This document shows, piece after piece, positions 1,020 through 30,879 of a DNA stretch of 32,098 nt (within the stretch, counting starts at the first letter, position 1; each line of letters opens with the position of its first letter). The DNA is from a virus. The position numbers were made by a program, and so were the translations under genes. The stretch spans positions 1 to 32,098 of the IMG/VR virus record IMGVR_UViG_3300045988_100140, one strand, 5' to 3'. The notes beneath the pieces were generated by a model that made no database searches, was not told the origin of the DNA, and was given only the letters and a program-made list of their open reading frames with translations.

Positions 1020-1225
1020 AACAAACGGTGCGTGAACCCACCGGGTCTACCTTTATGCTCCGCTGCGCTGAATTGGGTTTGACCGATGAAGCGCTGTCGG
1101 ATATGACCTGCGGCATGGTCTACGATTTGATGATCGAAAAGGCCAATGACGCAGAACAATATGCCATAAAGGGCAGGCCCGGCGGCTTGCGCGATTTCTT
1201 CGCAGGAGGTGGTAAGATTGGCTGA
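678..1225 (+). CDS. Tail assembly chaperone, -1 frameshift fusion product (GT-like)
   Basis: Frame 0 (678..1016) joins the -1 frame (1016..1225; ...KIKQTVREPTGSTFMLRCAELGLTDEALSDM...). This matches the conserved G/GT arrangement upstream of siphovirus tape-measure genes. Confidence 0.6.
1007..1016 (+). promoter_or_regulatory. Slippery A10 run (A AAA AAA heptamer) for a programmed -1 frameshift of the tail chaperone
   Basis: cca aaa aaa aaa taa in frame 0. The -1 frame stays open from the run (aaa ata aaa caa acg gtg...) to 1225. Confidence 0.6.
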
Positions 1226-3560
1226 AAATGTTAAAGGCATTGTTGTTGAGATCGGCGGCGATACTAAAGGATTATCCAAGGCCATTAGTGAGCTGAATGG
1301 CGAAATCCGCGGTACGCAGACCGAGCTTGACAAAGTCAATCGCCTGCTGAAACTTGATCCTACCAATATAGACCTGCTCAAGCAGAAAGAGCAGCTCCTT
1401 GGGGATCAGATTAAGAAAACAGAAAACAAGGTTGAAAGTCTCCGCAATGCCAAAAAACAGGCAGACGCCGAAATGGCAAGCGGGACGGAAGTAAACCAAA
1501 AGCAATACCGTGAGCTGGTAAGAGAGCTTGAAAGCGCCGAATTGAAGCTGAAAAGCCTGCAATCAGAAGCGTCAAAGAGCCATGCATCGCTGGCGCATGT
1601 TTCTACCATAACCGGAGAAATATCCAGTAAGGCGGGGAGCGTAGCCAAGAGTTTTGCGCCGATTTCCGTGGCACTCGCCGGTGTCGGCGTTGCTGCCGGT
1701 AAAGCGTCTATTGAGTTTGAAAGTGCTTTTGCTGGCGTCGAAAAAACCGTTGACGGAACCGAGGAACAGCTTGCGGCGCTCCGGCAGGGCATCTTGGACA
1801 TGGCTGAAGAAATACCCGCATCGACCACCGAGATCGCAGCGGTTGCGGAAGCAGCTGGACAGTTGGGCATTGCCACTGATGATGTGCTTGACTTCACCCG
1901 CGTTATGATCGATTTGGGTGAAGCAACCAACCTCTCATCTGACGAGGCTGCATCGTCTCTTGCCAAGTTTGCCAATATTACTGGAACCACTGCTGACGAG
2001 TATTCCCGACTTGGCAGCACAATTGTTGACCTCGGCAATAACTTTGCCACAACCGAGCGGGATATCGTGGAAATGGGAACCCGTCTTGCATCTGCCGGAA
2101 CCATAGCCGGATTGTCAGAACAGGATATCCTCGCTCTATCAACGGCGATGTCCTCCGTTGGAATTCAAGCCGAGGCTGGCGGTACAGCAATGACCCAAAC
2201 GCTGTCTGCCATCAGCAAGGCCGTTTCCGATGGCGGAGACGATCTTAAGACATTTGCTAAAATCGCCGGAGTTTCCGCAGATGAATTCGCTAAAATGTGG
2301 AGCGACGACCCCATTAAAGCTATCCAAGGATTTATCGGTGGACTGGGCGACATGAACGCCAACGGCGAAGATGTGCTTTCTGTGTTGGACGAGCTGGGTC
2401 TTTCCGGAATTCGACAATCCAACATGCTGCAGTCTCTTGCTTTAGCATCTGGGGTGCTCGGCGACGCCGTTACTACAGCAAATAACGCGTGGGAAGAAAA
2501 TGTTGCGCTATCCAACGAAGCAAGCAAGCGTTACGAAACGACAGAAAGCCAAATGAAGATCCTGCGGAACGGGCTTAACAACCTGGCTATCTCAATCGGG
2601 GATATCCTACTGCCGATTATCAACAAAATCGTCGGCGGGTTGCAAAATGCAATCAACTGGTTTTCCAACCTCGATAGTAGCACCAAAAAGACAATCCTTG
2701 TCATTGGCGGCCTTATCGCTGCTATTTCCCCGGTTGCCGGAATAATATCCGGTATAGCCGGAGCAATAAGCAAACTGACCGGGACTGTAATACCTGCGCT
2801 GACCAATGCCATCAACTTTTTGATAGCCAACCCAATAGTGCTGATCATCGCTGCGATCGTTGGGCTGGTTGCGTTAATTGCAACAAAGGGTGACGAAATA
2901 CAGGCAATCTTGCAGAAAGTTGATGATTTCCTGCAGAGCGTATTCACAACCGACTGGACGCAATCTTTCGGAATTCTCGGCAATATCCTTAATGCGTTTT
3001 TTACAACCGTAAAAAGTGTTTGGGACAGCATCAAGGCGGTCTTTGATGGCATCATCGATTTTATCCGCGGCGTTTTTACCGGAGATTGGGAAAGAGCGTG
3101 GAAAGGCGTTCAGGAGATTTTTGCAGGGCTATTTAAGGGATTGGTTGCCATTGCAAAAGCACCGCTTAACGGAATCATCGCCCTGATCAATATGGTTATT
3201 GATGCAATCAACTGGATGATAAACGGGATAAACTCTATTAGCTTTACCGTGCCAGATTGGGTGCCGGTCTTGGGCGGAAAGACGCTTGGATTTAATATTC
3301 CCAACATTGGAAAGCTCGCGTATCTTGCCAAAGGCGGTATCCTTTCCTCCGGAAGCGCCATTGTTGGCGAAGCCGGTCCGGAACTGCTCACCATGGCGGG
3401 CGGTCGTGCCCATGTTATGCCGCTGAATGGCGACGCAGGAAAAGGCGGAATTACCATCGAGATGAACAACACTTTTAATGGCTACGACAGCGCAGCCGGT
3501 GAAGCTGCTGCTCGTAACTTAGTGCAGGCAGTAAATCGTGCGCTTGGGAGGGCTTATTGA
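1209..3560 (+). CDS. Tail tape measure protein
   Basis: 783 aa with a coiled-coil N-terminus, a TP901-type TMP core by eye (...EIAAVAEAAGQLGIATDD...), and Gly/Ile-rich hydrophobic segments. AGGAGG at 1204..1209 fits a TTG start at 1218 better than the GTG at 1209. Confidence 0.9.
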   Translation: MVRLAENVKGIVVEIGGDTKGLSKAISELNGEIRGTQTELDKVNRLLKLDPTNIDLLKQKEQLLGDQIKKTENKVESLRNAKKQADAEMASGTEVNQKQYRELVRELESAELKLKSLQSEASKSHASLAHVSTITGEISSKAGSVAKSFAPISVALAGVGVAAGKASIEFESAFAGVEKTVDGTEEQLAALRQGILDMAEEIPASTTEIAAVAEAAGQLGIATDDVLDFTRVMIDLGEATNLSSDEAASSLAKFANITGTTADEYSRLGSTIVDLGNNFATTERDIVEMGTRLASAGTIAGLSEQDILALSTAMSSVGIQAEAGGTAMTQTLSAISKAVSDGGDDLKTFAKIAGVSADEFAKMWSDDPIKAIQGFIGGLGDMNANGEDVLSVLDELGLSGIRQSNMLQSLALASGVLGDAVTTANNAWEENVALSNEASKRYETTESQMKILRNGLNNLAISIGDILLPIINKIVGGLQNAINWFSNLDSSTKKTILVIGGLIAAISPVAGIISGIAGAISKLTGTVIPALTNAINFLIANPIVLIIAAIVGLVALIATKGDEIQAILQKVDDFLQSVFTTDWTQSFGILGNILNAFFTTVKSVWDSIKAVFDGIIDFIRGVFTGDWERAWKGVQEIFAGLFKGLVAIAKAPLNGIIALINMVIDAINWMINGINSISFTVPDWVPVLGGKTLGFNIPNIGKLAYLAKGGILSSGSAIVGEAGPELLTMAGGRAHVMPLNGDAGKGGITIEMNNTFNGYDSAAGEAAARNLVQAVNRALGRAY

Positions 3561-4381: not shown

Positions 4382-5402
4382 ATGCGAAGTTTTTGCGAGA
4401 GACTACACTTTCCGAAGCTTCGCCCCGATAGAAAGTCCGGAGATCCAGTTTGACTACTTGACGCTTGAAAAAACGAGTATCAAGGCTGTTAAAATAGACG
4501 CCAAAAAGGGAGACTTTTTAAGCGTCAGCGACCAAAATGGGAAAGTTGTCTATCAAGGAATAGTGGACGATGTTAATTATGACAAAAGTGGCGTAACCAT
4601 TGCGGCGCAGCCGCTCTTGTCTATTTTTGACGCAGATGTGTATTTTCAGAGGTCGCAGTCCTCAAAGATCGAACAGTTTATCGCTGGAATCATTACAGAT
4701 AACTTTGTAAGCAGCGACGACAATCTCCAAAATATCAGCGGCCTGTCGGTAACGACGACTACAGAAACGAGCGGAGCGCTTAACCTCAAGGATAATATCC
4801 ACAATTTATACGAGATAATCACCAAGGCGCTGACCGCTTACGGCATTGTTGTATCTGTCAGCCTTGACCCGCAGAAAAAGACCTTGATCACCACCGTCGG
4901 GAAGATATCAACAGAGGCTGTTGTCGAAGCTGACCTAAAGTCTGTGATCGAGAAGAATATCATCATCGGTGACAGCTATGGACAGCTGAACAAGGTCATT
5001 ATCTACAACAAGGCCGATGAAACTCAAAAGGTCACTTATTATCTGCACCCAGATGGGAAAATTGACACAGAGGATACAGAAAGAATAACCCCTGTGTTTT
5101 TTGCAAACCAATTTCTTGAAACGGACGGAGAATTTGCCACCGCAGCTTATCAAAAAGCCTATGATGCTTTATCTCCGCAAAAGTACGACAACATGATAGA
5201 GATCACCGTTCGGAATGATTGCTCCGTGATAGATGCCTATATGGAGATCGGCACAGAAGTAACCGTTTTAGACGAAGATAAATCATACGGAACGATACTG
5301 ACAGGGATTGCCCGGACAAGCGAGACAACAAAGCTGACCTTTGGTGTTGTCCGAGCTGATTTGACAAAAATACTGATATTAGAGAGGAGGTCAACCACTT
5401 GA
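4365..5402 (+). CDS. Tail protein, Gp37-like / Tal-equivalent baseplate hub
   Basis: TTG at 4365 follows ggaggtggag (MHTLYKCEVFARDYTF...). The ORF-track start at 4233 would overlap Dit by about 150 nt. It is the second gene after the TMP. Confidence 0.6.
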   Translation: MHTLYKCEVFARDYTFRSFAPIESPEIQFDYLTLEKTSIKAVKIDAKKGDFLSVSDQNGKVVYQGIVDDVNYDKSGVTIAAQPLLSIFDADVYFQRSQSSKIEQFIAGIITDNFVSSDDNLQNISGLSVTTTTETSGALNLKDNIHNLYEIITKALTAYGIVVSVSLDPQKKTLITTVGKISTEAVVEADLKSVIEKNIIIGDSYGQLNKVIIYNKADETQKVTYYLHPDGKIDTEDTERITPVFFANQFLETDGEFATAAYQKAYDALSPQKYDNMIEITVRNDCSVIDAYMEIGTEVTVLDEDKSYGTILTGIARTSETTKLTFGVVRADLTKILILERRSTT

Positions 5403-7006
5403 TAACCCTTTTACAATACAATGGATCAACAATAACTCCGACAGATGATGCTTATTTTTACGATAAAATGGTCAACGACAGCGGTATCTTTGAAGGCGTT
5501 ACCGTAACATCGCAGGGCGGCAATATCCTCAACATTTCTGACGGTAGAGGAATTATCCTCGGTAGAAACTTCGTCGTTGAGGAACAGACTGTAAATGCAA
5601 CGCTTCCGGGCTCTGCCTCGGTTACAGGGCGCTTGTTAATTCAAATCGACATGTCCGCAACCGATGCACCGATCTCTTTTGTAACGCAAGCGGCGTCCCC
5701 GCTTCCGACCCTCGTACAGGAGGATATCAATGCTGGGGGAACGATCTATCAGCTGCCGATTGCTACATATACAGCGGAACCTACGCTGATAAGCAATCTG
5801 AAAAATATAGCCCATAAAGTCATATCGAATGCGACAGAGATATCAACTCTCCAGCTGACAGCTTCCGGTTGGTCTGGGGCGGAAAGCCCATATACTCAAT
5901 CGGTAAGTATTCCTTCGGCGACGGAGTACAGCAAGGTCGATATCCAAATGGACTACACAGCCATTGATATTATGCTGGACAGCGGAACTGCTGCAATTTA
6001 CATTTCCAACACAAATGGCGCTCTTACTGCTTATGCTGTTGGGGAAAAGCCAATCTCCGACATGAACGTTCAAGTAACTATTAGTTCATCAATTAAAAGT
6101 GGAAAAGATCCCCCTAAAAATAGTGCATCAGGAAAAATCGAACTCCATTCCGAATTAACCGGTCAAAGTGTAAAGCCGGTAGAATCCGAATCAAAAAGCG
6201 GGATAGCTTTTTCAAATTCGGCAATGGTCGATAAGGTCAGCCCCAAAAATGGGGAATGCAAAAGAGTAGCTGATATTAGAACCGATGCATCTCCGGAAAG
6301 TGCCTCTTGTGTTGAAAGCTCTGCAAGACAGTTAGCGGTTATCGAAAGCGAGGCGAACGGTGTCGGCGTCACCGTCAACAAGCAAGAACCAAAAGAACAT
6401 ATTGAGATTACAAAGCCCAGCCCAAACGGAACAGAAATAATCCTCAACCCGAATAAGACCGGCGAGAAATTTGACCTGTTCCAATCGGTACCTACCGGTC
6501 ATGATGTGGTGCTTAATCCTATCCTGTTCGCAGAGGGACTTGCCCTTGCGCTTCCTGTTCCGCCGGGGACAGCAGCAATCGTTAACAAGATAACCGGTTC
6601 GGAAAGTGTTAAATTGGTTCAGCCAATCCCGACAGGTGATGATGTCCTGCTGATGAACGGTTCGGCTGCACATTCTGCCTCCGTAAAAAATAGCGGAAAG
6701 GCAAGCATCGGTGACTGCGTTGGTGGGAAATCTGACGGTGCGGTTTCTGCTAAAAACTCTGCAATCCCGGAAACCTTATCTTCTGTCTCAGCAAGCCAGA
6801 TGTCCGCACTAAAAGCGGTATCTGACATGCAGCCGCAGCAGATCGGGCTTGTGGATATGCTTAGCATTTTGGGCATGAAAATGCTTTGGAAAGCAGAAGC
6901 TGCAGCGGTTATCCCATGGGAATATCCTGTCCAGAATGGTGATGTTCTTTCCGTTACTCAAGTTTATAGCGCAATTCAAAACGACGCAGTATTGGAGGTG
7001 ACTTAA
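5399..7006 (+). CDS. Tail fibre / receptor-binding module protein with a periodic Gly-containing C-terminal half
   Basis: 535 aa. TTG start follows gagaggagg and overlaps the previous stop. The N-terminal domain is typical of Firmicutes prophage tail proteins by eye. The C-terminal half is Ser/Gly/Pro-rich and repetitive. Confidence 0.6.
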   Translation: MITLLQYNGSTITPTDDAYFYDKMVNDSGIFEGVTVTSQGGNILNISDGRGIILGRNFVVEEQTVNATLPGSASVTGRLLIQIDMSATDAPISFVTQAASPLPTLVQEDINAGGTIYQLPIATYTAEPTLISNLKNIAHKVISNATEISTLQLTASGWSGAESPYTQSVSIPSATEYSKVDIQMDYTAIDIMLDSGTAAIYISNTNGALTAYAVGEKPISDMNVQVTISSSIKSGKDPPKNSASGKIELHSELTGQSVKPVESESKSGIAFSNSAMVDKVSPKNGECKRVADIRTDASPESASCVESSARQLAVIESEANGVGVTVNKQEPKEHIEITKPSPNGTEIILNPNKTGEKFDLFQSVPTGHDVVLNPILFAEGLALALPVPPGTAAIVNKITGSESVKLVQPIPTGDDVLLMNGSAAHSASVKNSGKASIGDCVGGKSDGAVSAKNSAIPETLSSVSASQMSALKAVSDMQPQQIGLVDMLSILGMKMLWKAEAAAVIPWEYPVQNGDVLSVTQVYSAIQNDAVLEVT

Positions 7007-10802: not shown

Positions 10803-11120
10803 ATGAACATGAACGAATTTGTTACTTGGACGACCCTCGGAACCTATGCCGGTGCAGTAATGATGGTAACCATCATCACCCAGTTTTTGAAGCAGACCCC
10901 GCTTCGGAACATCAACACACAGCTTCTTTCTTACATCGTAGCGGCTCTTATCCTGATCGGAGCGGAAGCGTTCAATGACGCATCTGTAACGGCTCAGGGC
11001 GTTATTCTCTGCCTTCTGAATGCGGTTATTGTTGCTCTTGCTGCAAACGGCACTTACGATGCGGCTACTATGAAAAAGAAACAAGCAGAGTATGTTCATG
11101 AGGAGGAAGAAGATGCCTAA
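10803..11120 (+). CDS. Holin (three predicted TM segments)
   Basis: ATG at 10803 follows aaaggag. The protein is 105 aa with three hydrophobic helices and a charged C-terminal tail (KKKQAEYVHEEEEDA). It overlaps the start of the lysin gene. Confidence 0.7.
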   Translation: MNMNEFVTWTTLGTYAGAVMMVTIITQFLKQTPLRNINTQLLSYIVAALILIGAEAFNDASVTAQGVILCLLNAVIVALAANGTYDAATMKKKQAEYVHEEEEDA

Positions 11121-11814
11121 AGTGTATCTTTCTCCTGAACGCAGACCAGCTCCCCATGCCCCATACTACGGGTTCCCCGGCGTGTATGAACATGATGTGT
11201 GTGTAGAGATCGGCGCTTATTGCGCCGATGCTCTCACCCGCTGCGGCTTTGATGTGATGGTCGCGTCTCCCGATAAGACCATGCAGGAGCGTGTCGCCGA
11301 AAGTATCGCTTGGAGATCAGATCTCCACATGCCCATTCATACCAACGCCAGCTCTTCCACGCTGAAAGAGGGTTCCGCGCAAGGCCCGACCGTCCTGCGC
11401 TACGGCAAAGCCGGAGGAATCAGCGACCGAGCCTGTCAAATGGTCTACCGCAGGCTTATGGAGATTTACCCCCGCAACACCCACCGAGGGGTCTATCAGA
11501 AGGACGAGTTTTATGAGATCGGCAGAACCCCTATGCTTTCGATCTATCCCGAAATCGCATTCCATGACAATGGACAAGATGCCATTTGGATTGTACAGAA
11601 CAAAAAACGAATCGCCGAGGCACTCTGCAAAGGCGTGTGCGACTGGTTCAGCGTGACCTACAAGGAAGAAGAAAAGCCACAGACCGACTGTGACAAACTG
11701 CTTGCCGAGCTGGAGGAAGTCAAAGAAAAATACAGAACCGAACACGCATCAGTTCAGGCATTGCGTGGCAGAATTTTAGCCGCCATCGAGCAATACGATA
11801 CGGCGGCTGAATAA
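11113..11814 (+). CDS. Endolysin, N-acetylmuramoyl-L-alanine amidase (Amidase_3-like)
   Basis: ATG follows gaggaggaagaag. MPKVYLSPERRP...EHDVCVEIG...DLHMPIHTNASSS fits the MurNAc-LAA zinc amidase pattern. The C-terminal ~50 aa look coiled-coil rather than like a known wall-binding repeat. Confidence 0.85.
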   Translation: MPKVYLSPERRPAPHAPYYGFPGVYEHDVCVEIGAYCADALTRCGFDVMVASPDKTMQERVAESIAWRSDLHMPIHTNASSSTLKEGSAQGPTVLRYGKAGGISDRACQMVYRRLMEIYPRNTHRGVYQKDEFYEIGRTPMLSIYPEIAFHDNGQDAIWIVQNKKRIAEALCKGVCDWFSVTYKEEEKPQTDCDKLLAELEEVKEKYRTEHASVQALRGRILAAIEQYDTAAE

Positions 11815-12008: not shown

Positions 12009-12031
12009 AAACTCACAAAATAACTCACTTT
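12009..12031 (+). repeat. AAACTCACAAA plus TAACTCACTTT direct repeats (candidate arm-type sites, P' arm)
   Basis: They share the AACTCAC core and the orientation of 11812..11834. The second copy is identical to the P-arm copies and overlaps the int stop codon. Confidence 0.55.
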
Positions 12032-13110
12032 TTTCCCTGCTGTCCAAGAATTGATGTAAACACACTATCAAGAGCACTGGTTATTTGCCGATCCATGCCG
12101 GATACAGCGTGGCCATAAACGCCGAATGTGTCCATACTCTTGGAGTGCCCGACCAATTTCTTTACCCAACCCTCCGGGAGGGACTGTGCAAGGGAAACGA
12201 AAGTATGGCGCAGCTCGTATGGTGTCGTTTTCGGAATCCCGTTTGCTTTGCAATATCTTTGGAAAAACTTGCGATAGGTTTCTGTTGTCGGCATTTGGAA
12301 CAGATACAGGCCGTTTGACTTGGATGCTTGATCTTTTACAATCGCCTCTGCGATTTCGCCCAAATAAACGCTGCGTATCGCATTTTCGTTTTTGCCTGTA
12401 GTAATTTCATTATCCTCGTTTATCGACCGCCTTACCTCCAATCTGCCCTGTTTAAAATCATTCCGCATGATGCCGCGCAATTCCCCAGGCCGCAGACCGG
12501 TCAAAACCTCAAGGCGATAAGCATTTATATACGGGTCTTTTACCAATTTCCCCTTGTAGATCGTCGTATCAACGGAGAAAAGCGTTACAATATCCTCCGG
12601 CTGCAAAATGTTGCGAACGCCAACGGGAGCGCCTTTGGGAATTGTTATGTCCTCCGGGGCAAATCCGGTTATTTTCATTTTCCGCAGATATTTGCAGAAA
12701 GAAACCATGTCGGCACGGATACTTTGAAGATACTTTTTCGACAATTTCCCGTTATTGTAGGCATAGTCGATAACCTTTTGCAAAATCCCATCGCAAAGTG
12801 CATCTGCCTTTAGGTGACCTATCCTTGGGTCAACCCATGTTTTCCAGCGGCTTTCCTGTGGCCGCCAATTCGATTGGGAAGTCCGGATTTTAAGCTGCTC
12901 CATATAGCTTTCGTGCAGCTCTGATAGGCGCAGCTTCGTGCCGCAGATGCCAGATGCCAGCCAGTCATCTGCTTTTCGGTTCGCTTCTCTCTGCCCTTCC
13001 CTTCCAGGTCGACTGCTTGTAAATGTTTTTCTTATGCCATCTTTCTGCACGGCGATCTGCCAGCGGTTCTGCTTCTCAAGCCACTTTGCCGTATTTGTCC
13101 TTTCTTTCAT
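12025..13110 (-). CDS. int: Tyrosine recombinase / phage integrase
   Basis: 361 aa. The N-terminal arm-binding-like region is MKERTNTAKWLEKQNRWQIAVQKDG.... Catalytic motifs are ...LRPGELRG..., ...YELRHTFVSLA... and ...LVGHSKSMDTFGVYGH. SD caggaggg. Confidence 0.95.
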   Translation of the reverse strand: MKERTNTAKWLEKQNRWQIAVQKDGIRKTFTSSRPGREGQREANRKADDWLASGICGTKLRLSELHESYMEQLKIRTSQSNWRPQESRWKTWVDPRIGHLKADALCDGILQKVIDYAYNNGKLSKKYLQSIRADMVSFCKYLRKMKITGFAPEDITIPKGAPVGVRNILQPEDIVTLFSVDTTIYKGKLVKDPYINAYRLEVLTGLRPGELRGIMRNDFKQGRLEVRRSINEDNEITTGKNENAIRSVYLGEIAEAIVKDQASKSNGLYLFQMPTTETYRKFFQRYCKANGIPKTTPYELRHTFVSLAQSLPEGWVKKLVGHSKSMDTFGVYGHAVSGMDRQITSALDSVFTSILGQQGKK

Positions 13111-22562: not shown

Positions 22563-22820
22563 ATGAAAAGCGAAGACATTACAAAACTCCCGTATGCACC
22601 ATGGCTCGAAGACGCAATCCGAACTTTGACAGAGCACGATGTTTGCTCGGCTTGCATTGTCGCAAAATTTGACGAAGGGGACACCATGACCGGCTACTGG
22701 AACGCAGATGCACAAGATAAGGCAATTTTCGCCCATAACATCCAGAGCGATATTGTTATGGACATCGTGCAGCAGAACGCCGGAATCATAAAAGAGGCGA
22801 TGGAGGAGGGCGATGAATGA
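22563..22820 (+). CDS. Hypothetical protein
   Basis: ATG at 22563 lies about 10 nt after aaggagga. An alternative ATG at 22542 overlaps the previous stop. 85 aa, acidic. Confidence 0.6.
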   Translation: MKSEDITKLPYAPWLEDAIRTLTEHDVCSACIVAKFDEGDTMTGYWNADAQDKAIFAHNIQSDIVMDIVQQNAGIIKEAMEEGDE

Positions 22821-23257
22821 TAGACTACAAAAAGATCTGCAAGTGGGAGCTGGGTCGATATTACGAAAAGCTGCTTGCCATCGAAAGCCTGCAGGACGAG
22901 ATCGACACGCTGAACGCCCGCATGGAGGGCATCAGATCTCCGGCAAGAGATGCCACACCTGTGCAGGGCGGCAGCTCGACCGCCGAGGAGCGCATCATCA
23001 ATGCCATCTGCAACAGGGATAACCTAACCGTCAACCATGAGCTGGTTAAATGGCAAGTGCGCCAGATGGAGAGAGGGCTTTCTGTGCTTACCGACCAGCA
23101 GCGCAGGATCCTTGAGGTTGCTGTTATGCGTAGAGAGCACAACGCCATCGACAGACTGTGCGACGAGCTGCACATCAGTAAATCGGAGCTGTACCGCAGA
23201 GAAGATGAAGCGCTCCGGAGATACACTATTTGCCGATACGGTGTGACCGAGCTGTAA
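22817..23257 (+). CDS. Late-gene transcriptional activator (RinA/ArpU/DUF722-like, sigma region-4-type HTH)
   Basis: 146 aa. ...VLTDQQRRILEVAVMRREHNAIDRLCDELHISKSELYRREDEALRRY is an HTH at the C-terminus. It is the last gene before the packaging module. Confidence 0.7.
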   Translation: MIDYKKICKWELGRYYEKLLAIESLQDEIDTLNARMEGIRSPARDATPVQGGSSTAEERIINAICNRDNLTVNHELVKWQVRQMERGLSVLTDQQRRILEVAVMRREHNAIDRLCDELHISKSELYRREDEALRRYTICRYGVTEL

Positions 23258-23433: not shown

Positions 23434-23505
23434 GCTCCCGTAGCTCAATGGTAGAGCAGCTGCCTTGTAAGCAGCTGGCTGTGGGTTCAAATCCTACCGG
23501 GGGCT
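23434..23505 (+). tRNA. tRNA-Thr (anticodon UGU), no encoded CCA
   Basis: Hand-folded cloverleaf: acceptor gctcccg/cgggggc (one G-U pair); D-arm gctc-aatggta-gagc; anticodon arm gctgc-cTTGTaa-gcagc; variable loop tggct; T-arm gtggg-ttcaaat-cctac; discriminator U. 72 nt. Confidence 0.9.
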
Positions 23506-23585: not shown

Positions 23586-23617
23586 AAAAAGAGCAAGCAT
23601 TAGCCTGCTCTTTTTTG
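23586..23617. terminator. Bidirectional rho-independent terminator
   Basis: The gagcaagc-atta-gcctgctc hairpin (one mismatch) is flanked by aaaaa on the left and tttttt on the right. It separates the + strand tRNA from the convergent minus-strand cassette. Confidence 0.7.
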
Positions 23618-23626
23618 TTGCGATAG

Positions 23627-24067
23627 TTACCAAGACAGCTTCCTCAAAAAGTCGATGTCTGACCATGAAATACCATATTTTAGCTTAATGTCTTTTACGG
23701 AAGTGCAATTGGACTCATATGCCGGGATTTCGGATAAGCGCTTTACTTCGTTGTCCGTGAGGCTGTCGAAAATGTCACAGAGTTTTAAGCGGCTTTGGTA
23801 AAGGTCCTTCGATCTATACATGCCATATGCTTCGTCCCAATCTTTCGCAGGCACCTTGTTTTCCTCGATCTCTTCAAGTTTGGCGATGCAGCTCTTCCTG
23901 ATCCGCTCGCAAGCCTCTGAACGGATATTCCTGCTTTTTTTTGCTGCCTCCTCAATCAGGGACTCGATAACTGCTGACATCGTACAACCCTCCTTTTCTG
24001 CGAGTGCGGAAAGCGCGTTTTTCGTCCCCTCTGAAACTCTTACATGAATGATTTCTGTTTTGTTCAT
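23627..24067 (-). CDS. Ribbon-helix-helix (CopG/Arc-like) domain protein with an uncharacterised C-terminal domain
   Basis: 146 aa. SD ggagg lies 7 nt upstream. The N-terminus MNKTEIIHVRVSEGTKNALSALAEKEGCTMSAVIESLIEEAAK fits the RHH beta-alpha-alpha pattern. Confidence 0.8.
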   Translation of the reverse strand: MNKTEIIHVRVSEGTKNALSALAEKEGCTMSAVIESLIEEAAKKSRNIRSEACERIRKSCIAKLEEIEENKVPAKDWDEAYGMYRSKDLYQSRLKLCDIFDSLTDNEVKRLSEIPAYESNCTSVKDIKLKYGISWSDIDFLRKLSW

Positions 24068-24079
24068 CGTGATGCCTCC

Positions 24080-24346
24080 TTAATCTTCAACGATTGTAAA
24101 TACACTTTTGGGGATCCAAGTGGTCCAGCCCTTTACGGAACCGTCGATAGCGCCGGAGGAAAGGCGAACCTTCATCGCTTTTTCGCTCTCGCCGAGAACT
24201 TCTTCAACGTTTACGAAAACACAGCCGTCCTCTTCGTATCTGGTGCCGAGATCGGGATTTCTGCGGGTGTAGTCGATAAATACATTGTACGCCTTGGCGG
24301 TATCCTCGGTCTTGTCGTAGAACCAAGATTTAAGTTTAATCTCCAT
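24080..24346 (-). CDS. Hypothetical 88-aa protein, first gene of the antisense cassette
   Basis: SD caaggagg. MEIKLKSWFYDKTEDTAKAY...SEKAMKVRLSSGAIDGSVKGWTTWIPKSVFTIVED. No family confidently recognised. Confidence 0.75.
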   Translation of the reverse strand: MEIKLKSWFYDKTEDTAKAYNVFIDYTRRNPDLGTRYEEDGCVFVNVEEVLGESEKAMKVRLSSGAIDGSVKGWTTWIPKSVFTIVED

Positions 24347-24385
24347 GTTTGTTCCTCCTTGTGATTGGCTTCCTTTACTGTCTTT

Positions 24386-24414
24386 ATTATATCATGTGTA
24401 TATACATTTGTCAA
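24386..24414 (-). promoter_or_regulatory. Perfect consensus sigma-A/sigma-70 promoter (TTGACA-17 nt-TATAAT) driving the antisense cassette
   Basis: On the minus strand the -35 TTGACA is at 24414..24409, followed by the 17-nt spacer aatgtatatacacatga and the -10 TATAAT at 24391..24386. The spacer contains the palindrome TGTATATACA (24397..24406). Confidence 0.75.
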
Positions 24415-24583
24415 CACAAAATAGCACATAGTTTAATAATAATTGCACAAATTTCTAAAGTGAAATATGGCGTGTTATACAAAAAAGGAAGCCCGGCACA
24501 GGAAACACCGGGAGGGACAGGGCGGGTAATGATAAAAGGAGGACACATGGATTTACAAAAAGCAGATAGCAGTGTGCCACATT

Positions 24584-24994
24584 ATGACCGGCTCAACAAT
24601 AACCTATGCAAATGGCGCAAAAGTGGAAACGGCATATGTAACCAACCTTGATGATCCTGACCTCGTTATAAGGACTGCGCCAAATCTATCTTTGGCAATA
24701 AAAGCCGCAAATGAAACATACCTAAAAGAAAAAAAGAAAGTTTTACAAAAGAACCAATACCCGGATTATGTTTTGACGGCAGCGATGGCAAACACATACG
24801 CAAGCCGAGGGGTAGAATACAAGCTGCGAAAATGCGATTGCGTGAAAATATCAGCATTAGATGATCAGAAAGAAAAGAAAAAAGCCATATTCGGCGGCGG
24901 TCTTTTGCTGTCAGAACGAGCGGCAGCAGAACAATGGACGCTATCGGATAGGGAGTGGGAAATTGTTCGGAGTTTGGGCAATGGTTCCGTTTGA
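24584..24994 (+). CDS. Hypothetical protein upstream of the HNH gene (start uncertain)
   Basis: The ORF track starts it at GTG 24572, and the first ATG is at 24584 (MTGSTITYANGAKVETAYV...). Neither has a good SD. The only strong SD (aaggagg, 24536..24542) serves an out-of-frame ATG at 24547. Confidence 0.5.
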   Translation: MTGSTITYANGAKVETAYVTNLDDPDLVIRTAPNLSLAIKAANETYLKEKKKVLQKNQYPDYVLTAAMANTYASRGVEYKLRKCDCVKISALDDQKEKKKAIFGGGLLLSERAAAEQWTLSDREWEIVRSLGNGSV

Positions 24995-29187: not shown

Positions 29188-30879
29188 ATGGCACTGAAAG
29201 CAATTATGATCGGCCACAAGCTGGAGCTGAAAAGATCTGCACTTGCGGAACTGACTGCAAAAGATGCGGAATTTGAGACCCGCTCGGCTGAGATTGAAAA
29301 GGCAATCGGCGAAGCAACTACAGACGAGGAGCAGAGTGCGGTGGAGGAGGCTATGACCAAGTACACTGAAGATCTCGACGCTCACAATTCAGAAAAAGAA
29401 AAACTGTCCGCAGAAATCGAGGGGCTTGAAAAAGACCTCGAAGATGCAGAGAAAGACCAGCCCGAACCCAAGGGCGAACCGGAACCCAAAAAGAAAGACG
29501 AAAGGAATGATTTCACCATGAATACCATCAACATTCGCTCCCTCCCCATGAATGTACGAGCCTTTGATGCGCTGCCCAAGGAGCAGCGCGATGCCATCGT
29601 AGCCCAGCCCGACGTGCAGACCTTCTTTTCCGAGCTGCGAAACGCTGCCCGTAGCAAACGTGATATCACCGGCGGTGAGCTGACTATCCCCATCGTATTC
29701 CTCGACCTAATTGCCGAGAATATGTACCGCTATTCCAAGCTGATGCGCCGCGTCCGTATCCGGAATGTCAATGGAGAAGCCCGTCAGACTATTGCCGGTA
29801 CTGTCCCCGAAGCGGTTTGGACTGAGATGTGCGGTGCTATCAACGAGCTGACCTTCAGCTTCAATCAGATCACACTCGACGGCTTTAAGGTAGCCGGTTA
29901 TGTGCCCGTTTGCAACTCTCTGCTTGAGGACAACGATGTAAACCTCGCCTCTTGGATCGTGGAGATGCTGTCCGAGGCTATCGGTCTTGCAAAAGATAAA
30001 GCAATCCTTTATGGCAAGGGCTCCGGTCAGAAGATGCCCCTCGGTATTGTGACCCGTCTGGCACAGGAGAGCAAGCCGACCGACTATCCCGCTACCGCTC
30101 CCGCTTGGGTCGACCTGCACACCTCCAACATCATCACCATTCCTACCGCTTCCACCGGCGAGGCTTTCTGGGCTGCTCTGGCTGTTGCTGCCGGTAACAC
30201 CTTTACTCGCTACTCCCGCGGCGAGCGCTTCTGGGCAATGAATAGCAAGACCCTCGCTACTCTGCAGTCCAAGGCGATCCTCGCCACCGCCCTCGGTCGT
30301 TATGTCACCTTTGATGGCATGACCATGCCCATCATCGGCGGCGATGTGGAGATCCTTGAATTTATCCCCGACGGCGATATCGTTGGCGGCTACGGCGATC
30401 TGTACCTGTGGGCGCAGCGCTCCGGCATGACCATTGAGGCTTCCCGCGAGGTTCAGTTCATTCAGGACAACACCGTGTTCCGTGGCAAGGAGCGTGCTGA
30501 CGGTATGCCCGTTATTCCCGGCGCTTTCGTTGCCATCAACATCAACGGTTCTGCGGTTACCACCTCCATGACCTTTGCGGCAGATAACGCCAACAACGCC
30601 AAGCTGTCTGCTCTGACTGTCGGCAGCCTGTCTCTCAGTCCCGCATTTGACGGTGATGTTCTGAGCTACACCGCTACAGCTTCCGCTGCGACTTCCGCTG
30701 TGAACGCCACCACCGAGGTTGCCGGTGCTCAGGTCGCGATCTCTTACAACAACGCCAATGTGAAAAACGGCGGCACTGTTACTTGGCTGGCTGATGGCAC
30801 TGCCCATCCTCTGACCGTAACCGTGAAGAACGGCAACGAGACCGTAGTCTATACCGTCAATGTAACCAAGGCTTCCTAA
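29188..30879 (+). CDS. Major capsid protein (HK97 fold) with an N-terminal coiled-coil delta/scaffold region and a C-terminal cadherin-like/Ig-like beta-sandwich extension
   Basis: 563 aa. The N-terminal ~110 aa are acidic coiled coil. The core is HK97-like. The last ~93 aa (30598..30876) read LSALTVGSLSLSPAFDGDVLSYTATA...TVTVKNGNETVVYTVNVTK. Confidence 0.9.
   Translation: MALKAIMIGHKLELKRSALAELTAKDAEFETRSAEIEKAIGEATTDEEQSAVEEAMTKYTEDLDAHNSEKEKLSAEIEGLEKDLEDAEKDQPEPKGEPEPKKKDERNDFTMNTINIRSLPMNVRAFDALPKEQRDAIVAQPDVQTFFSELRNAARSKRDITGGELTIPIVFLDLIAENMYRYSKLMRRVRIRNVNGEARQTIAGTVPEAVWTEMCGAINELTFSFNQITLDGFKVAGYVPVCNSLLEDNDVNLASWIVEMLSEAIGLAKDKAILYGKGSGQKMPLGIVTRLAQESKPTDYPATAPAWVDLHTSNIITIPTASTGEAFWAALAVAAGNTFTRYSRGERFWAMNSKTLATLQSKAILATALGRYVTFDGMTMPIIGGDVEILEFIPDGDIVGGYGDLYLWAQRSGMTIEASREVQFIQDNTVFRGKERADGMPVIPGAFVAININGSAVTTSMTFAADNANNAKLSALTVGSLSLSPAFDGDVLSYTATASAATSAVNATTEVAGAQVAISYNNANVKNGGTVTWLADGTAHPLTVTVKNGNETVVYTVNVTKAS

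Follow-up and report, generated by a model that had tools for sequence, protein, structure and literature searches.

A candidate self-repressed counter-defence operon in an exchangeable antisense slot of a temperate siphovirus genome

The stretch of DNA analysed here (the window, 32,098 nucleotides (nt) of IMG/VR virus record IMGVR_UViG_3300045988_100140) belongs to a temperate siphovirus, and between the late activator/tRNA region and the packaging genes it carries a cassette of two minus-strand genes, A and B, which encode proteins of 88 and 146 amino acids (aa). The cassette has its own consensus promoter with a palindrome in the spacer and its own hairpin terminator; among close relatives it behaves as exchangeable cargo; the symmetry of the palindrome is conserved; the combination of promoter and inverted repeat recurs in operons of the A family; and the DNA-binding domain joined to the C-terminal domain of B (domain X) has been swapped in another phage. 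By analogy with operons of anti-CRISPR (acr) and anti-CRISPR-associated (aca) genes, we tentatively read the cassette as a self-repressed early counter-defence or establishment operon, a reading that we hold to be possible rather than probable. An initial annotation, made from the letters of the DNA, had described two minus-strand open reading frames 12 nt apart, each with a GGAGG, an exact TTGACA-17-TATAAT promoter, a spacer palindrome and a two-sided hairpin terminator; all of these were found in place (Table 1). The location was likewise confirmed by the annotated ArpU-like, tRNA-Thr, HNH, TerS and TerL genes, and the description of a moron-like, self-contained unit held, given its own promoter and terminator and its presence or absence among close relatives with sharp homology boundaries.

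The promoter of the cassette scored 12 of 12 against the consensus and has an extended -10 TG. It is the sole exact TTGACA-17-TATAAT site in the 32 kb on both strands (0.01 expected from shuffles), and it predicts a transcription start near 24379 on the minus strand. The palindrome in its spacer, TGTATATACA, is a putative operator for one ribbon-helix-helix (RHH) dimer of B. We compared the promoters of 14 copies of the A-B cassette, which represent seven variants. The -35 hexamer was unchanged in all 14, and the palindrome was identical in 12; the other two copies (L004 and L073) read TGTGTACACA, in which the paired positions 4 and 7 are altered together and the palindrome is retained. The five spacer bases 3' of the palindrome occurred in five versions and drift freely. 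Because the symmetric double substitution keeps the palindrome while the adjacent spacer bases drift, the comparison points to selection on operator symmetry, through one compensatory event and not many. Autoregulation at the palindrome, as proposed in the initial annotation, has thereby gained comparative support, and the binding step itself stays a prediction.

No further good copy of the operator was found in the window. The only near copy, TGTAAATACA (24095-24104, one mismatch), lies inside the cassette, at the end of gene A and just 5' of the ribosome-binding site of B. At least two operator matches occurred in 4 of 100 shuffles, and the site could be a second binding site for B or a chance match. 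At the other end of the operon, the terminator hairpin with its flanking A and T runs (23616-23586; stem GAGCAGGC/GCTTGCTC, 23610-23591) lies ten nt past the stop codon of B. Its predicted folding energy was -19.9 kcal/mol (z = -5.2), and none of 200 shuffles folded as well. Since a T-run lies on each strand of the hairpin, termination would be possible in both directions. A simple terminator scan had not listed the hairpin; an Rfam match to STnc320 coincides with it.

To place the cassette among related phages, we collected 55 IMG/VR contigs whose ArpU-like protein is 73-94% identical to that of the window. The standard layout, seen in 41 of the 55, consists of ArpU, tRNA, a 263-aa metallophosphoesterase-like gene, a conserved hairpin element and HNH. 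In most of the 55, genes other than A and B occupy the slot. A-B was present in only one of them (L071), and additional copies were found by searches with A or B (L002-L004, L015-L017 and L073-L078); tRNA-Thr is missing from L002, L015 and L016. The right border of the slot is a 47-bp backbone element, the 26-bp core of which was found in 53 of the 55 relatives, always directly 5' of HNH or a methyltransferase-like gene. This element might serve as a late promoter or leader, halt antisense transcription, or have a part in packaging. On the left, the segment 23506-23619, which includes the terminator, is also present with unrelated antisense cassettes in L018, L019, L058 and L065. As judged from these homology breaks, the cassette is exchangeable cargo in a bordered slot. 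Its base composition is the same as that of its surroundings, and BLASTN of the region against deposited phages gave matches confined to ArpU and the tRNA.

Small, very acidic proteins are the cargo of the sister antisense cassettes, some of which add a DNA-binding protein; none has a toxin-like member. In L019, a 90-aa protein (isoelectric point (pI) 4.5) is paired with a 47-aa RHH protein whose sequence shares 57% identity with the N-terminus of B. L058 has a 61-aa protein (pI 4.05) and a protein with a C-terminal helix-turn-helix (HTH), L065 has proteins of 187 aa and about 74 aa together with the same HTH protein as L058, and L018 has a lone 90-aa protein (pI 4.2). Some relatives carry plus-strand accessory genes in the slot (DUF559-like, methyltransferase-like or Rha-like). 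The slot in L066, L068 and L070 (about 4540-5973) holds a plus-strand pair of genes for a 130-aa protein and a 333-aa protein, the latter with a zinc ribbon, an HTH and a DUF4065/Panacea-like region as judged by eye; L068 also carries a Rha-like gene of 215 aa. Separately, a 245-aa gene with a faint match to DUF559 (Vsr-like endonuclease) lies between the ArpU-like gene and the tRNA/cassette in L058 (1584-2321) and L004 (6677-7414).

Protein A matched nothing in Pfam, NCBIfam or PADLOC, in agreement with the initial annotation, which could assign it to no family. A full HMMER scan of 1.84 billion representative proteins gave an A family that falls into 84 clusters when grouped at 50% identity, of which 46 had E <= 1e-10; almost all members are stand-alone proteins of 75-95 aa, and the identical A protein was recorded from 138 contigs. 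The family signature comprises W8, Y20-N21, E-x-E-K-A (53-57), G65, G69-S70 and G-W-x-x-W-I-P-K-S (73-81), and the median pI is 5.5, most members being mildly acidic. Among 61 members scanned, 44 matched phrog_12732, a group of unknown function, and Pfam gave scattered single matches only. C-terminal domain extensions occur in P0004, P0019, P0071 and P0072, and a GGRG-type N-terminus in P0021 and P0089. One subfamily (L080, L082, L085, L088, L089 and L091-L095; P0017, P0037 and P0091) has an N-terminal helical extension of about 35 aa with the consensus MK.Y.LS.IMK.AW.LVK....ISS.LKKAW.EAK, for which no Pfam match was found. The long repetitive proteins P0051, P0076, P0083 and P0088, which match the C-terminal motif of A, look like low-complexity artefacts. 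No match to A came from tBLASTn searches of deposited phages and plasmids, nor did a literature search on the WIPKS motif and phrog_12732 yield anything relevant.

Fold prediction with AlphaFold2 and Foldseek, proposed as a check in the initial annotation, gave a small beta-barrel for A and an all-helical model for B, and no significant fold match for either. The model of A has a strand, a helix and a four-strand sheet (best predicted local distance difference test score (pLDDT) 73, the other four models being poor), from which a small beta-barrel is predicted. Foldseek of this model against PDB gave only generic SH3, Sm and Tudor barrels (E > 0.4), with barrels of Hfq and integrase C-terminal domains also listed, all non-significant; the best match in BFVD was a phage SNF2 helicase (E = 0.046, non-significant). 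A weak match to PDCD5 in the PDB profile search was judged to be chance. Across the family, structure and profile searches, neither A nor B had a close homologue of characterised function.

The gene neighbourhoods, another check proposed at the outset, turned up A-B copies in relatives and, beyond these, varied partners of A in about 20 distinct contexts. As a rule, A heads its operon. In many cases it adjoins a tyrosine integrase (L012) or a serine recombinase (L014, L086/L087 and L089); it lies past the lysis genes in L013 and L090 and heads an early or replication block in L079 and L083. In 12 of the 20 contexts, a DNA-binding protein gene follows A, directly or past one to three small genes, several of which encode acidic proteins; in a 13th (L007), the gene immediately 5' of A encodes an RHH protein. 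These partners are HTH_3 or RHH proteins of 47-194 aa. Overall, at least six unrelated kinds of DNA-binding protein were seen with A homologues, some of which stand alone. A has no obvious partner in L086/L087 and L096, where gaps of 255 nt and 311 nt, respectively, lie downstream of it. The gene next after A in L079 is ArdC-N-like (23.6 bits against a cut-off of 22.6), and in L084 A is preceded by a SNF2-like helicase. As a separate observation, the gene immediately 5' of the A homologue encodes a 379-aa AAA_5 (MoxR/McrB-like) ATPase in two elements that are not related (L008 6222-7361 and L081 2212-3351).

Two small acidic domains move between these contexts. Domain Y (motif EY..E..YDE.GE...GGD.W) is fused C-terminally to an HTH in L091, is a free gene in L012 and L007, and is fused to A in P0019 (E = 5e-14). 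Domain Z (motif DGCT...A..H.K.G) is fused C-terminally to an HTH in L089 and is a free gene in L086.

The regulatory design of the cassette recurs in the family. In all 19 A-family operons compared, the best promoter-like site lay 25-73 nt 5' of the start codon of A. Thirteen of these sites matched 10 or more of the 12 consensus positions, and those of the window, L013, L079 and L089 matched all 12. Eleven of the 19 operons also have an inverted repeat, its sequence differing from locus to locus, within the spacer or spanning it (examples in Table 1).

The initial annotation had seen a clear RHH motif at the start of B. The fold is probable, going by the pattern IHVRVS-(helix)-(helix), and the profile matches are consistent, if weak: residues about 2-67 matched ten RHH-type Pfam families at E = 7.5e-4 to 0.1, every one below the curated cut-off, among them MatP_C, NikA-like, RHH_1, RelB, RHH_5, VapB, RepB-RCR_reg, DUF6290 and FitA. 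NCBIfam matches (RepA, RelB/DinJ and YlcI) were also below cut-off, and PDB profiles gave a weak match to MazE7 (E = 0.009). The AlphaFold2 model of B is all helical (pLDDT about 80), with both RHH helices visible; a monomer model cannot form the strand pair. For the remaining domain X, about 100 residues, no significant fold or sequence match was found, and Foldseek of B returned generic helical bundles only. A weak match of X to an internalin cap in the PDB profile search was judged to be chance.

Among 5.8 billion proteins searched, the sole homologue beyond near-identical copies was P0009, a protein of 169 aa in which X is N-terminal and followed by an HTH_3 domain (X-HTH). It is 42% identical to X of B over 50 aa (pairwise E = 2e-12, profile E = 2.7e-25). 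In an unrelated phage (L008-L010), an A homologue precedes the gene for P0009, with a gap of 12 nt. Because X-HTH also follows an A homologue, the link between A and X persists across the swap of the DNA-binding domain. In L008, the A/X-HTH pair is part of a block co-oriented with a cI-like repressor gene. Two operators with the same half-sites (TACGCT-N4-AGCGTA) lie 5' of that pair (L008 7560-7690), one being a 22-bp perfect palindrome that overlaps the -10 and the other lying about 70 nt upstream; together they predict a clean binding site for P0009.

The proposed counter-defence or establishment operon would work as follows. Upon entry of the phage DNA, host RNA polymerase would fire the consensus promoter without a phage factor, and A and B would be co-produced from one short transcript ending at the hairpin. 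B would dimerise via its RHH N-terminus and bind TGTATATACA between -35 and -10, lowering the promoter to a low level that would persist in the lysogen. The payload would be A, as a small beta-barrel binding protein, and possibly also the helical X of B, each of which may block a component of host immunity or nucleic-acid handling by binding to it. Given a maximal promoter, an operator positioned to block the polymerase and a short two-protein transcript, the unit would give a strong burst of expression that the product of its last gene then ends, which, by analogy, is the published logic of acr-aca operons. That B binds the palindrome, that expression comes early, and that the cassette has a counter-defence function and target at all are inferences of ours. 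If cos lies between HNH and terS, as we presume from HNH-terminase cos phages, the cassette would be about 1 kb from one genome end and transcribed inward from that end.

In common with acr-aca loci, the cassette has an inverted repeat in a strong promoter, a 3' regulator gene (with RHH matches below cut-off) and variable cargo at its locus. The acidic sister cargos without a toxin-like partner, the ArdC-N-like neighbour, the integrase and early-block positions and the mobile domains lean towards counter-defence. Against it, neither A nor B resembled Acr, Aca or anti-restriction families in Pfam, NCBIfam, PHROGs, PADLOC, PDB or BFVD, the only anti-restriction link being the ArdC-N-like neighbour in L079. 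A is tied to a DNA-binding partner in most contexts and B occurs only with A, and a toxin-antitoxin pair would look alike. A is only mildly acidic, the minus-strand orientation in a temperate phage also fits expression from the prophage, and the RHH matches are all below cut-off. Public pipelines label B an antitoxin ("RelB/DinJ antitoxin"), a label that claims more than the evidence supports. The gene pair for the 130-aa and 333-aa proteins looks like a toxin-antitoxin module, and, since it sits in the slot of L066, L068 and L070, the slot is not reserved for counter-defence.

The main rival, though unlikely, is a type II toxin-antitoxin or abortive-infection module with the toxin gene first. 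A would then be a new toxin that B neutralises via X, with repression via the RHH at the palindrome, and the prophage would gain stability or protection against other phages. The initial annotation had listed a reverse-order toxin-antitoxin pair among its possibilities; we keep it as a live rival and favour the counter-defence or establishment operon, which that annotation had not considered. In toxin-first systems such as higBA, brnTA and hicAB, the antitoxins swap RHH and HTH domains. HigBA, BrnTA, HicAB and omega-epsilon-zeta resemble the cassette in having a small first gene followed by an RHH or HTH protein, a promoter palindrome and mixed DNA-binding and neutralising modules, and its gene order, sizes and spacing match toxin-first systems on general knowledge. 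Two adjacent genes with a 12-nt gap under a single promoter and terminator, the RHH protein and the palindrome would all be expected; the RHH region of B weakly matches RelB, VapB, FitA and MazE7, in line with the public antitoxin annotation; and such a pair, judged by eye, fills the slot in three relatives. The recurrence of A-X with another DNA-binding domain in a second phage fits as well, as does the presence of a DNA-binding gene beside A or within three genes in 13 of the 20 contexts (upstream in L007), and the A-Y fusion and the acidic middle proteins could be neutralisers. Against this, A matches no toxin family in Pfam, NCBIfam or PADLOC and its fold matches only generic small beta-barrels (E > 0.04). 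The A family is mostly acidic to neutral, unlike basic RNase-type toxins, carries diverse N- and C-terminal extensions, and is sometimes without a coupled partner (L086 and L096, with their long gaps). X is a folded domain of about 100 aa (pLDDT about 80), and the sister antisense cassettes have an acidic protein with a DNA-binding protein or with no partner, and no toxin-like member.

An antagonist-repressor pair, of the SinI/SinR or antirepressor-repressor kind, is very unlikely. A would bind X and lift repression, making the pair a switch for late genes or the lysogeny decision. The co-inheritance of A and X despite the swap of the DNA-binding domain suggests a physical link between them, A is predicted to have a small binding-type fold, and the cassette lies back-to-back with the conserved element ahead of the packaging genes. 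However, the only perfect operator is the cassette's own promoter, and the one-mismatch copy at 24095-24104 is also inside the cassette, so the regulator of the late switch considered in the initial annotation is unlikely. Most close relatives complete their life cycle without the cassette, and a protein found with at least six unrelated kinds of DNA-binding partner, or alone, is ill-suited to a core switch. Least likely is a lysogenic-conversion or superinfection-exclusion pair, which the prophage would express to its host's benefit and which would act on incoming phages or host physiology: the host-type promoter and terminator antisense to the lytic genes, the integrase and HTH repressors of a temperate phage and the cI-like gene co-oriented with the pair in L008 would suit it, but the translations of A and B, read by eye with no dedicated predictor, had no evident signal peptide, hydrophobic or membrane segment, which makes the classical membrane-based form of the superinfection exclusion offered in the initial annotation unlikely, no PADLOC defence model was matched, and a maximal promoter under tight self-repression would be unusual for a prophage gene with constitutive expression.

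Although neither protein has been characterised, units of this kind, autoregulated accessory operons in which the regulator carries a further domain, are known. AcrIIA1 of Listeria prophages, a 149-aa protein, combines an HTH autorepressor with an anti-Cas9 C-terminal domain and is encoded in a strongly promoted operon with other small effectors. B is equal in size and would likewise join an N-terminal DNA-binding autorepressor (putative) to a proposed effector domain, whereas its DNA-binding domain is RHH and not HTH, and PDB searches found no similarity between them. Toxin-first toxin-antitoxin systems differ from the cassette in that A belongs to no known toxin family, its family is mostly acidic, and it is sometimes without a coupled partner. 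The morons of lambdoid phages share with the cassette their own promoter and terminator and a sharp-edged presence or absence among close relatives, and differ in that the cassette has conserved 5' and 3' slot borders common to several antisense cargos and a putatively self-repressed promoter.

Two published systems come close in architecture. AcrIE10, a bifunctional Acr-Aca, joins an RHH regulator at its N-terminus to an Acr domain of five helices. Its gene is the second of acrIE9.2-acrIE10 on Klebsiella plasmids, an operon that represses itself and has an inverted repeat over -35/-10 (PMC13530269). Our cassette likewise has two genes, an RHH and a small all-helical domain in the second protein, an inverted repeat in the core promoter and putative self-repression; in contrast, no sequence or fold similarity was detected, and the cassette is in a phage of gut Clostridia-like hosts, not on an enterobacterial plasmid. 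Aca14, an Aca of the RHH type, has its inverted repeat over the -10, and a homologue of AcrIF25 carries an HTH in place of the RHH (bioRxiv 10.64898/2026.07.27.740549). In architecture, the cassette is like these in having an RHH gene at the 3' end of a small-gene operon, a promoter inverted repeat and an RHH/HTH exchange; unlike with Aca14, the repeat lies in the spacer and not over the -10, and B has an extra domain of about 100 aa.

If the cassette serves counter-defence, the A family would be a new effector family of about 84 sequence clusters, none annotated, and B would be a second natural RHH regulator-effector fusion, in phages of poorly studied gut Firmicutes. There would also be two handles for searches, namely a consensus promoter with a spacer inverted repeat and a bordered cargo slot. 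If A is instead a toxin, it would found a new toxin family with unusually varied neutralisers. The bordered antisense slot and what was generalised over the A family are useful as leads rather than surprising. A bolder extension, quite unlikely in our estimate, is that the A family and the domains X, Y and Z form a new set of counter-defence effectors of gut Clostridia phages and integrative elements, that B is a target-sensing autorepressor as AcrIE10, with binding of X to a host target or to A freeing the promoter, and that the antisense slot from the 47-bp element to the terminator is a dedicated cassette-exchange site. Were the slot such an exchange site, it could be mined for more effectors by position alone.

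Gene content across the 32-kb window is that of a temperate siphovirus. HTH repressors and a Rad52-type recombinase are encoded in addition to the genes in Table 1, and the order past tRNA-Thr is cassette, HNH, P27-type TerS, TerL, portal, protease and capsid. Among deposited sequences, phage contigs from human faeces come nearest.

Table 1. Features of the cassette and its surroundings, and inverted repeats at promoters of other A-family operons. Positions are those of the window.
Feature	Position	Strand	Remarks
Gene A, 88 aa	24346->24080	-	GGAGG 24358-24354, 7 nt 5' of ATG
Gene B, 146 aa	24067->23627	-	GGAGG 24079-24075, 7 nt 5' of ATG
RHH-like N-terminus of B (probable)	24055-23933		residues ~5-45
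Helical X domain of B	23923-23630		residues ~49-146
Sigma-70-type promoter	24386..24414	-	TTGACA 24414-24409, 17-nt spacer, TGA-TATAAT 24391-24386
10-bp perfect palindrome TGTATATACA	24397..24406		in promoter spacer
Two-way intrinsic terminator	23586..23616		A6, 8-bp G+C-rich stem, loop TAAT, T5
Exchangeable cargo	about 23620..24486	-	homology breaks, BLASTN against L002, L004, L015-L020, L023, L033, L058
47-bp backbone element, right slot border	24487..24533		hairpin CCCGGCACAGGAAACACCGGG, T-run on minus strand
Tape measure	1209-3560
Amidase	11092-11814
Tyrosine integrase	12025-13110	-
ArpU-like DUF1492 gene	22817-23257
tRNA-Thr	23434-23505
Inverted repeat, L008/L005			22-bp perfect palindrome
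Inverted repeat, L090			16+16
Inverted repeat, L091			9+9, across -35
Inverted repeat, L080, L012			8-4-8
Inverted repeat, L089			7-1-7
Inverted repeat, L086			7-3-7
Inverted repeat, L013, L085			6-1-6

Next to the right border of the slot, the plus-strand open reading frame 24572-24994 (140 aa, GTG start) corresponds to the C-terminal half of a methyltransferase-like gene of about 270 aa (phrog_21498), which is intact in L020 and L033 and has a DNPPF motif there. The first 14 codons of the window copy (MIKGGHMDLQKADS, 24529-24570) are out of frame with the remainder. Because a 316-nt internal deletion has joined these codons out of frame to the rest, the gene is probably a pseudogene. An Rfam match to D12-methyl RNA at 24473-24524 (E = 0.38) was not reproduced in four relatives and is probably chance.

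The major capsid protein (Phage_capsid, 29188-30879) has a C-terminal Cadherin-like beta-sandwich domain at residues 480-561, which may be a capsid decoration or adhesion domain.

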